DNA of 41,292 nt from a virus (IMGVR_UViG_2718217862_000001); one strand, 5' to 3'. Shown: positions 26,600 through 27,300, counted from the first letter of the stretch. Notes: generated by a model from the letters alone, not told the origin. Numbers and translations: made by a program.

Positions 26600-26870
26600 A
26601 TAAACAGCCCCTCCGGAGAGGGGCTGGAGAGTGGCGCTATGTGCCATTGCATGGTGCCGGGTGCCTCCCGGTGAATTCAGTACCAGCACCTGAATCCGCG
26701 ATTATCCCATATACCTACTCGCTGATTACCCCTCCGCACAGGGGGATTCACCATGCGAAATTTTTTAACAAACTTCCCGCCGGCCAGACAATAATCGCCA
26801 GCCTGAATTATGAGCAACGTGGCATTTTACGGGAAAACTGTTTTCTGCAGTAAAAAGGCCCGCCGGAGCG
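26600..26870. repeat. Copy A of a ~200-bp duplicated non-coding element ending in a GC-rich hairpin
   Basis: Shares GCATGGTGCC.GG.GCCTCCCGGT.AATTCAG, GGGGGATTCACCATGCGA and CCAGACAAT.ATC blocks with copy B; hairpin GCCCCTCCGGAGAGGGGC at 26607-26624. Confidence 0.6.
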
Positions 26871-27059
26871 AGCCTGGAAGGATAGCGGTCATGTGATGCC
26901 GGTTTCCCGGTAACTCAGCATCGGTATCTGAGTCAACGTTTTCTCTACTGGGTCATTTCCGATACGTTCCGCCTTCCGGCAGACTTTCATCACGTCAGAA
27001 AATATAGCACCCTGAGTAACAGGACAGTACTCAGAATTCAGGAAACTGTGACACATCCT

Positions 27060-27300
27060 GCACAGAAAAGCCCCTCCGGAGAGGGGCTGAAGTATAGCCT
27101 AATTTCTGTCTGTCGCATGGTGCCAGGGGCCTCCCGGTAAATTCAGCCTGTCTACTGAATTTGCATGTTCTCTGGATCATACACTTTGCCAGATGCCCCG
27201 CCGCTGAGGGGGATTCACCATGCGATGTAATTTTTAACAAATTCTCCGGCAGCCAGACAATCATCAAGCTGTGGAATTGTGAGGTATTTAAAAATTTCAA
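27060..27300. repeat. Copy B of the duplicated non-coding element, with terminator-like hairpin
   Basis: Same conserved blocks as copy A; on minus strand hairpin GCCCCTC-tccg-GAGGGGC followed by TTTTCT at 27061-27087. Confidence 0.6.

Follow-up and report, generated by a model that had tools for sequence, protein, structure and literature searches.

What is encoded by the repeated element that separates the late regulator gene Q and a tRNA gene from the lysis genes in this lambdoid prophage? The DNA studied here (IMGVR_UViG_2718217862_000001), the whole 41,292-nucleotide stretch of which is referred to as the window, carries its late genes on the minus strand. An earlier note, written from the sequence alone, described two diverged copies of a noncoding element of about 200 bp at positions 26600–27300, and proposed that they encode paired sRNAs or are remnants of a duplicated pR'–tR' segment. 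The repeat is identified here as the known, curated prophage sRNA family STnc100, with PasD and EcOnc27 as relatives. Since it belongs to a known Rfam family the element is a real feature, but one that has already been described, and its identification is a rediscovery. The units are three tandem sRNA genes, not two. Their coordinates and those of the surrounding features are given in Table 1.

Identification of the repeat

Three co-linear blocks of 35, 32 and 30 nt (83, 91 and 90% identity, respectively) were located in copies A and B using a repeat finder, with a spacing of 466–469 nt between the copies. A hairpin common to both copies was found in the same way (AACAGCCCCTCCGGAGAGGGGCTGGAG versus AAAAGCCCCTCCGGAGAGGGGCTGAAG, 93% identical). 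In a pairwise alignment, the minus strands of A and B share a mean column identity of 77% over ~260 columns. The shared blocks and hairpin of the earlier note are therefore confirmed, at 83–93% identity, and its count of two copies is replaced by three homologous units. The covariance-model search against Rfam that it had suggested returned STnc100 (RF02076) for copies B and A at 138 and 132.5 bits, respectively; the gathering score of the family is 47 bits, and both matches span the whole model (positions 1–206). A sub-threshold match of 30 bits to the same model, at 27024–26849 on the minus strand, corresponds to the middle copy C and, taken alone, falls below the 47 bits. Riboswitch families gave no Rfam match to the units, and AsxR and AgvB gave none in the window. 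As the note had stated, no conserved ORF spans the element: the overlapping ORFs differ between the copies and none of the four has a Pfam match.

Copy C was recovered with a second covariance model, R1, which was built from 13 canonical cores and finds C at 34.6 bits (E = 2.8e-5 in a search of 0.93 Mb, and 1.2e-6 when the window alone was searched with filters off). The centroid fold of C has the architecture of A and B, with a different sequence. A C variant of ~91% identity is present in two further phage contigs, L129 and L148; it has compensatory changes in helices P1 and P2 and a different terminator, and keeps an identical promoter motif and linker (GACCGCUAUCCUUCC), which argues for a functional gene and not a decayed copy. 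The C type is found in 673 of 5426 complete E. coli genomes, with no annotation among the matches listed. In the C-type unit of L148 (2971–3140, plus strand) the linker stops after GACCGCUAUCCU and is followed by unrelated sequence; it looks as if a rearrangement or insertion took away the terminator.

Architecture of the units

The same fold was predicted for all three RNAs in single-sequence and centroid calculations. A closing helix P1 is followed by P2, a variable insert P3, P4 and P5, with hairpin P5 stacked directly on P1. A linker of 15–26 nt, largely unpaired in the predicted folds, then leads into a GC-rich terminator. RNA B ends in UUUUCU and RNA C in UUUUU, and the tract of RNA A is interrupted (GUUUAUAUUGAUUUUG), so that termination and Hfq binding may be weak in copy A. 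The hairpins and T-rich ends that the note had reported on the late strand are placed by the terminator scan after both A and B, and its further hairpin followed by T5 is the terminator of the third copy. The minus strand has 11 terminator-like sites in 1.5 kb, compared with 1.6 expected from shuffles.

The candidate promoters of A and B show a motif that lies at the same distance in most relatives (TTGnCT-18-TGtTAAAA), and PasD has TTGACT-18-TAAAAA. A simple sigma-70 promoter scan calls none of the candidate promoters of A, B and C; those of A and B are passed over because the −10 hexamer TAAAAA is without the final T. From their motifs, the candidate promoters of the window would be active, and the RpoD ChIP-exo signal reported at STnc100 promoters in Salmonella LT2 agrees with this (PMC10794520).

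The 5' ends of PasD1 and PasD2 were taken from table S6 of PMC8550237 and the corresponding sequences from strain E2348/69. The mapped ends (NC_011601.1, positions 1060260 and 741157) fall exactly on the G of GCAUGGUG, the base with which the conserved core begins in copies B and A (27223 and 26756, respectively). As the mapped PasD start falls after the first ~29 positions of the Rfam model, these positions are probably promoter DNA rather than RNA.

Table 1. Positions of the three units, of neighbouring features in the window and of arrays in other contigs
Feature	Position	Strand	Remarks
Promoter of B, candidate	27231..27260	−	−35 TTGTCT 27260–27255, 18-nt spacer, extended −10 TGtTAAAAA 27239–27231; read from sequence
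sRNA B, ~160 nt	27064..27223	−	STnc100 138 bits (Rfam match 27253–27060, E = 2.5e-31); model R1 88.1 bits; fold −60 kcal/mol, z = −2.6
sRNA B scaffold	27223–27115	−	Helices P1, P2, variable P3, P4, P5
sRNA B unpaired linker, putative seed	27114–27089	−	GACAGACAGAAAUUAGGCUAUACUUC
sRNA B terminator stem	27088–27069	−	Then UUUUCU (TTTCTGTGCA); terminator scan
Promoter of C, candidate extended −10	27001..27009	−	TGcTATATT, 6 nt before core; read from sequence
sRNA C, diverged middle copy, ~145 nt	26851..26995	−	Rfam 30 bits; model R1 34.6 bits
sRNA C scaffold	26995–26891	−	P1 GUGAUG/CAUCAC, P2 UCUGCC/GGCGGA, P4 GACUCAG/CUGAGUU, P5 CCGG-GAAA-CCGG
sRNA C linker	26890–26876	−	GACCGCUAUCCUUCC
sRNA C terminator stem	26875–26856	−	Then U5 (TTTTACTGCA); terminator scan
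Promoter of A, candidate	26762..26791	−	−35 TTGTCT 26791–26786, 18-nt spacer, TGtTAAAAA 26770–26762; read from sequence
sRNA A, ~159 nt	26598..26756	−	STnc100 132.5 bits (Rfam match 26784–26596, E = 6.4e-30); model R1 127.3 bits; fold −69.8 kcal/mol, z = −3.2
sRNA A scaffold	26756–26649	−	Same architecture as B
sRNA A linker, putative seed	26648–26627	−	AAUGGCACAUAGCGCCACUCUCC
sRNA A terminator stem	26626–26605	−	Then TTTATATTGA; interrupted U tract GUUUAUAUUGAUUUUG
Q	27823–28644	−	Pfam PF03589, 182.8 bits
Late promoter and short terminated transcript, candidate	~27817–27716	−	TTGATT-16-TAAATT, stem 27742–27723, T run
tRNA-Met	27604–27679	−	Repeat region next on minus strand
Small hydrophobic ORF, 38 aa	27342–27458	−	Just upstream of the array
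iraM	26235–26570	+	NCBIfam NF007393, 162 bits (cut-off 121); RefSeq annotation agrees
Inverted repeat closing iraM	26540–26573		Perfect, 12 bp
Holin, lysozyme and Rz ORFs	25583–23853	−	
sok antitoxin RNA	30678–30853	−	Rfam RF01794, 112.4 bits
ALIL pseudoknot, partial	1–72	+	Rfam RF01497, 58.6 bits; cut at window 5' end
DicF	36737–36788		Rfam, 76.7 bits
STnc100-scaffold-like domain	36809–36934	+	Between the DicF terminator and the dicB start codon (36964)
Tandem array, contig L127	2326–3350	−	Four units
Tandem array, contig L129	3150–3741	+	Three units
Tandem array, contig L174	1392–1785	+	Two units

Conservation and covariation in the family

A pattern scan of IMG/VR gave 120 loci, which were reduced to 67 distinct real variants with 28 distinct cores. 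The median pairwise identity among the 67 variants is 0.96 for P1/P2 and 0.94 for P4/P5/P1', values that are somewhat inflated because 19 core bases were fixed by the search pattern (13 at the start of the domain and 6 at its end), and 0.29 for the linker, calculated over the 25 nt after the core. The linkers of these variants fall into 15 unrelated types, with that of copy A as the commonest (22 of 67 distinct variants). A 15-base pattern (GCATGGTGAATCCNCC) was also searched against genome contigs; the matches listed were chance matches in unrelated phyla, none of them with the element.

Pairing was analysed in a model-fitted alignment of 39 distinct relatives, an alignment that leans towards the modelled structure. 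In this alignment 97.2% of the cells pair and changes on both sides occur in 21 of 26 pairs, while slid controls pair at 39–48%. In a MAFFT-only alignment of close relatives, P4 alone covaries. Compensatory changes in P1 can be read directly: GCAUGGUG/CACCAUGC is replaced by AUAUGGCG/CGCCAUAU, GCGUGGUG/CACCACGC, AUGUGAUG/CAUCACAU or GUGAUG/CAUCAC. The conserved structure with compensatory changes that is expected of STnc100 is thus seen both in the model-fitted alignment and in the direct reading of P1 and P2. The unpaired GAA after P1 is invariant, as is the AGGCA loop of P5 in most members. P5 is absent from PasD and from locus L208, and P3 is freely variable. An RNAalifold consensus calculated on a MAFFT alignment that contained PasD-type members had a different structure and was set aside, since MAFFT had misaligned the members without P5; single-sequence folds and the covariance-model alignment were used in its place.

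Genomic context

The site of the units is that expected of STnc100: the prophage is lambdoid, and the units have the late regulator Q on one side and the lysis genes on the other. The same Q-to-lysis-gene placement is found in loci L003 and L245, in E2348/69 and in 933W, and the order Q, tRNA-Met, three genes, iraM, holin recurs in the isolated phage vB_EcoS-640R1. The whole 741-bp array is present with the same layout in 657 of 5426 complete E. coli genomes. Beyond iraM, the ORFs correspond to genes for which L245 has the annotations DUF1737, holin, lysozyme and Rz. The statement of the note that Stx phages carry stx at this site agrees with 933W, where the homologous gene starts 104 nt past the stx2B stop codon.

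Directly after Q there is a candidate late promoter with a short terminated transcript. This pR'–tR'-like segment was read from the sequence and its stem was taken from the terminator scan; Rfam gives a weak Trp_leader match alone here, which is spurious. It would correspond to pR'/6S RNA in lambda and to StxS in Stx phages.

On the other side of the array, iraM is convergent to sRNA A, with its 3' end 28 nt from the end of the sRNA. IraM is an anti-adapter that stabilizes RpoS. With the U tract of copy A interrupted, read-through would run antisense to iraM. The 38-aa ORF just upstream of the array occupies the position at which related loci have a DUF3927 family protein, directly before PasD or the array. 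Elsewhere in the window, the sok antitoxin RNA marks a hok/sok-type toxin–antitoxin locus upstream of Q. The partial ALIL pseudoknot, of the Rfam cis-regulatory class, presumably belongs to an IS3-family insertion sequence as its frameshift element, and an IS would then lie at window positions 1–72.

Known relatives and comparison systems

STnc100 is among the most often annotated sRNA families in bacterial genomes, and its function is listed as unknown (PMC9029176). EDL933 has eleven copies, of which STnc100_4 was confirmed by Northern blot (PMC5331693), and a GenBank phage record (LC710661.1) already names a site homologous to the present one STnc100. In strain Sakai, at least eight prophages are reported to encode Hfq-binding sRNAs in the interval from the late promoter to the lysis genes (PMC7873438). 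The relatives that have been studied are Hfq-bound RNAs of 170–190 nt on Northern blots (PMC8550237, PMC7873438, PMC5331693). The proposal of paired sRNAs consequently stands as far as it concerns an sRNA family with expressed, Hfq-bound relatives (PMC8550237, PMC7873438, PMC12711010, PMC5331693), and 'paired' becomes three in tandem. Copies A and B share the prophage location and terminator-ended architecture of STnc100; C scores 30 bits, below 47.

PasD1 and PasD2 of EPEC were found by RIL-seq, are seen on Northern blots and in RNA-seq, and are abundant RNAs with Hfq-dependent stability (PMC8550237). A 2026 preprint concludes that PasD and STnc100 descend from one ancestor (bioRxiv 10.64898/2026.05.13.724894). 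PasD1 and PasD2 of E2348/69, which have EcOnc13 homologues in EHEC, share the start GCAUGGUG and helices P1, P2 and P4 with the window copies. Their site is also similar, after Q and the DUF3927 gene and before the lysis genes, and they are discrete RNAs of ~172 nt. They differ in that P5 is missing, the 3' region is longer and contains the seed UGUGAG, and the terminator is not the same; their score with the Rfam STnc100 model is 38–41 bits. The PasD seed and most of the listed RIL-seq chimera junctions lie in the variable 3' part of the RNA (PMC8550237). UGUGAG is absent from the three window linkers. Only the 5' scaffold is common to PasD and the window copies.

EcOnc27/sRNA103, downstream of stx2B, is Hfq-bound and visible on Northern blots (PMC7873438), and an STnc100 copy overlaps it (PMC12711010). 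This RNA of 933W and Sp5, directly downstream of stx2B, belongs to the same family (model R1, 97.8 bits) and shares the promoter motif. The linkers of EcOnc27 (AGUAUACAGAGAUUAGGCAUAUACC) and copy B (GACAGACAGAAAUUAGGCUAUACUUC) are alike, whereas the P3 insert and terminator of EcOnc27 are different, and it is a single copy paired with AsxR as opposed to three copies on the same strand.

The lambda 6S RNA and StxS are likewise short, terminated, noncoding RNAs of the late region of lambdoid prophages. They have no sequence or structural similarity to the units, however, and the pR'–tR' transcript is the substrate of Q antitermination; the units lie downstream and have candidate promoters of their own. 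Adjacent paralogous sRNA genes with one part conserved and another diverged are also known as OmrA/OmrB, PrrF1/PrrF2 and Qrr1–4, in which the seed is usually the conserved part. In the window units, by contrast, the seed candidate varies and the scaffold is constant.

Other arrays and the dicF–dicB domain

Tandem arrays are also present in other phage contigs, with four units in L127, three in each of L129, L136, L144, L153 and L209, and two in L174. Each unit in these arrays has its own promoter-like motif and a different linker, and most have a terminator hairpin. The pasA and pasD copies, on the other hand, are far apart and are not products of tandem duplication (bioRxiv 10.64898/2026.05.13.724894).

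A fourth domain, homologous to the 5' scaffold of STnc100, lies between the DicF terminator and the start codon of dicB. It scores 44.1 bits with model R1 and 38.8 bits with Rfam STnc100, the latter over model positions 21–154 only. Its P1 is extended to ~15–20 bp (UUUUGUGAUGCGGUG/CACCGCAUCACAAAA), and its P5 is CCUGG-AGGCA-CCAGG. Of the 5426 E. coli genomes, 4633 have the dicF–dicB spacer, and a partial literature search returned no published description of the domain. An RNase III site downstream of DicF was considered and dropped, as the literature places the site of the dicBF operon upstream of DicF (bioRxiv 10.1101/2023.04.14.536235); the extended P1 in the spacer is therefore without a known processing role. 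The idea that the 190-nt long form of DicF consists of the scaffold plus DicF was also rejected: upstream of DicF the model reaches only 9.5 bits (E = 2.3), and the fold there has no relation to the scaffold. The tandem arrays of 2–4 units and the dicF–dicB domain may be new, as far as the literature was checked.

Proposed mechanism and alternatives

We consider it likely that the array consists of three independent, tandem, same-strand genes for trans-acting sRNAs, placed in the moron slot and combining a constant scaffold with different seeds. Each gene would probably be transcribed from its own sigma-70 promoter in the prophage state, as the promoter motifs suggest, starting at the first base of P1 and stopping at its own intrinsic terminator to give RNAs of ~145–160 nt. 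The first module would be a constant and stable 5' domain of ~105 nt, in which P1 encloses P2, the variable P3, P4 and P5. This domain would bury the 5' end and would probably act as a platform for stability or for factor binding. The second module would be the short unpaired stretch before the terminator, which is different in each of the three copies. If the RNAs behave as PasD does, Hfq would bind the 3' terminator and U-tail, and the variable stretch would be the seed that pairs in trans with host and horizontally acquired mRNAs. If the linkers, which differ, act as seeds, three genes would give three specificities. When the linkers were compared with all ORF start regions in the window, the trivial self-antisense matches aside, no duplex was better than those of shuffled linkers. 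In lytic growth the three terminators would be passed by RNA polymerase that comes from pR' and has been modified by Q.

That the repeats are instead the remnants of a duplicated pR'–tR' late promoter and terminator segment, as the note had offered, is extremely improbable. Each unit does have a promoter-like motif and a terminator downstream of Q, and the terminator hairpins are loosely alike (27720–27746 versus 26603–26629, 63% over 27 nt). The segment at ~27817–27716 shares no core sequence with the repeats, however; the family model is silent at 27716–27822 with filters off, and a generic hairpin alone is alike. In 933W the homologous unit follows stx2B, ~1.9 kb from the annotated pR'/tR', and the match of the repeats is to a family of sRNAs rather than to any late-promoter or Q-utilization region. 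Very unlikely, too, is an origin as non-functional DNA, whether as the fragment of a decayed gene, as what is left of an IS or as a recombination 'linker' maintained only by frequent phage–phage exchange. The conserved domain does lie at mosaic junctions with flanks that differ between phages, and RefSeq annotates partial 'hypothetical protein' pseudogenes over the repeats. The fragment of a known gene or IS that the note had allowed for was nevertheless not found, as the overlapping ORFs have no Pfam domain and no frame conserved between the copies. The substitutions are compensatory in RNA helices, a candidate promoter and a terminator are kept in each unit, and relatives are transcribed and Hfq-bound (PMC8550237, PMC5331693).

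Two further readings grant the units a function other than that of seed-bearing sRNAs. The first takes them to act in cis, as leaders or attenuators or as a terminator cascade that shields the lysis genes from transcription not modified by Q, and we regard this as quite unlikely. With a promoter, a structured domain and an intrinsic terminator in this order, the units look like attenuators, there are three extra terminators between pR' and the holin gene, a co-oriented esterase gene follows PasD2 in E2348/69 and the related dicB-leader domain lies just upstream of the dicB start codon. Copy A, however, is followed by the convergent iraM with no co-oriented ORF, and the next element after B, as after C, is a further sRNA unit. 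P2 was considered as an antiterminator partner because it resembles the terminator hairpin in A, B and C, and was rejected because this alternative P2–terminator pairing is not conserved in the L129 C-type copy or PasD. The co-oriented downstream gene and conserved alternative pairing of a riboswitch or attenuator are thus both missing from the units, and relatives accumulate as discrete Hfq-dependent RNAs (PMC8550237). The other reading places the function in the conserved 5' domain, which would bind a host or phage protein or a small ligand or direct RNA processing, with the linker incidental. It is unlikely, although a mechanism that relies on the seed alone gives no account of the strong conservation of this domain. 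Its conservation far exceeds that of the putative seed; it also has the invariant unpaired nucleotides named above (GAA and, in most members, AGGCA), shows compensatory changes in all four of its helices and recurs, without a seed or terminator of its own, inside the dicBF operon transcript. Against this reading, the domain matches no Rfam family other than STnc100 and has no known candidate partner, PasD and L208 are without P5 and P3 varies freely, and the listed chimeras and Hfq-dependent stability of PasD point to the 3' part of the RNA. For trans-acting sRNAs with variable seeds, the simplest idea is that the 5' domain serves 5'-end protection and stability.

Implications

The window adds nothing fundamentally new to what is known of STnc100. 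It is a clean example of a constant scaffold joined to a variable seed candidate, with three different candidate specificities side by side and adjoining the RpoS-stabilizing iraM. In a machine-learning study of O157:H7, variants in the stx2-adjacent STnc100 region were among the best predictors of haemolytic uraemic syndrome (HUS; PMC12711010). More tentatively, and with a low probability in our estimation, the 5' domain of ~105 nt could be a portable RNA module that functions autonomously. Lambdoid phages would then reuse it both in front of the different seed cassettes of sRNA arrays and within the dicBF operon, between DicF and dicB, and it would be conserved because it binds a specific host or phage factor or directs processing, not for simple stabilization. 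If this were true, arrays of 2–4 tandem units would allow a phage to diversify its targets while keeping one platform. Work on the role of the conserved domain could take these arrays and the dicF–dicB domain as a guide.
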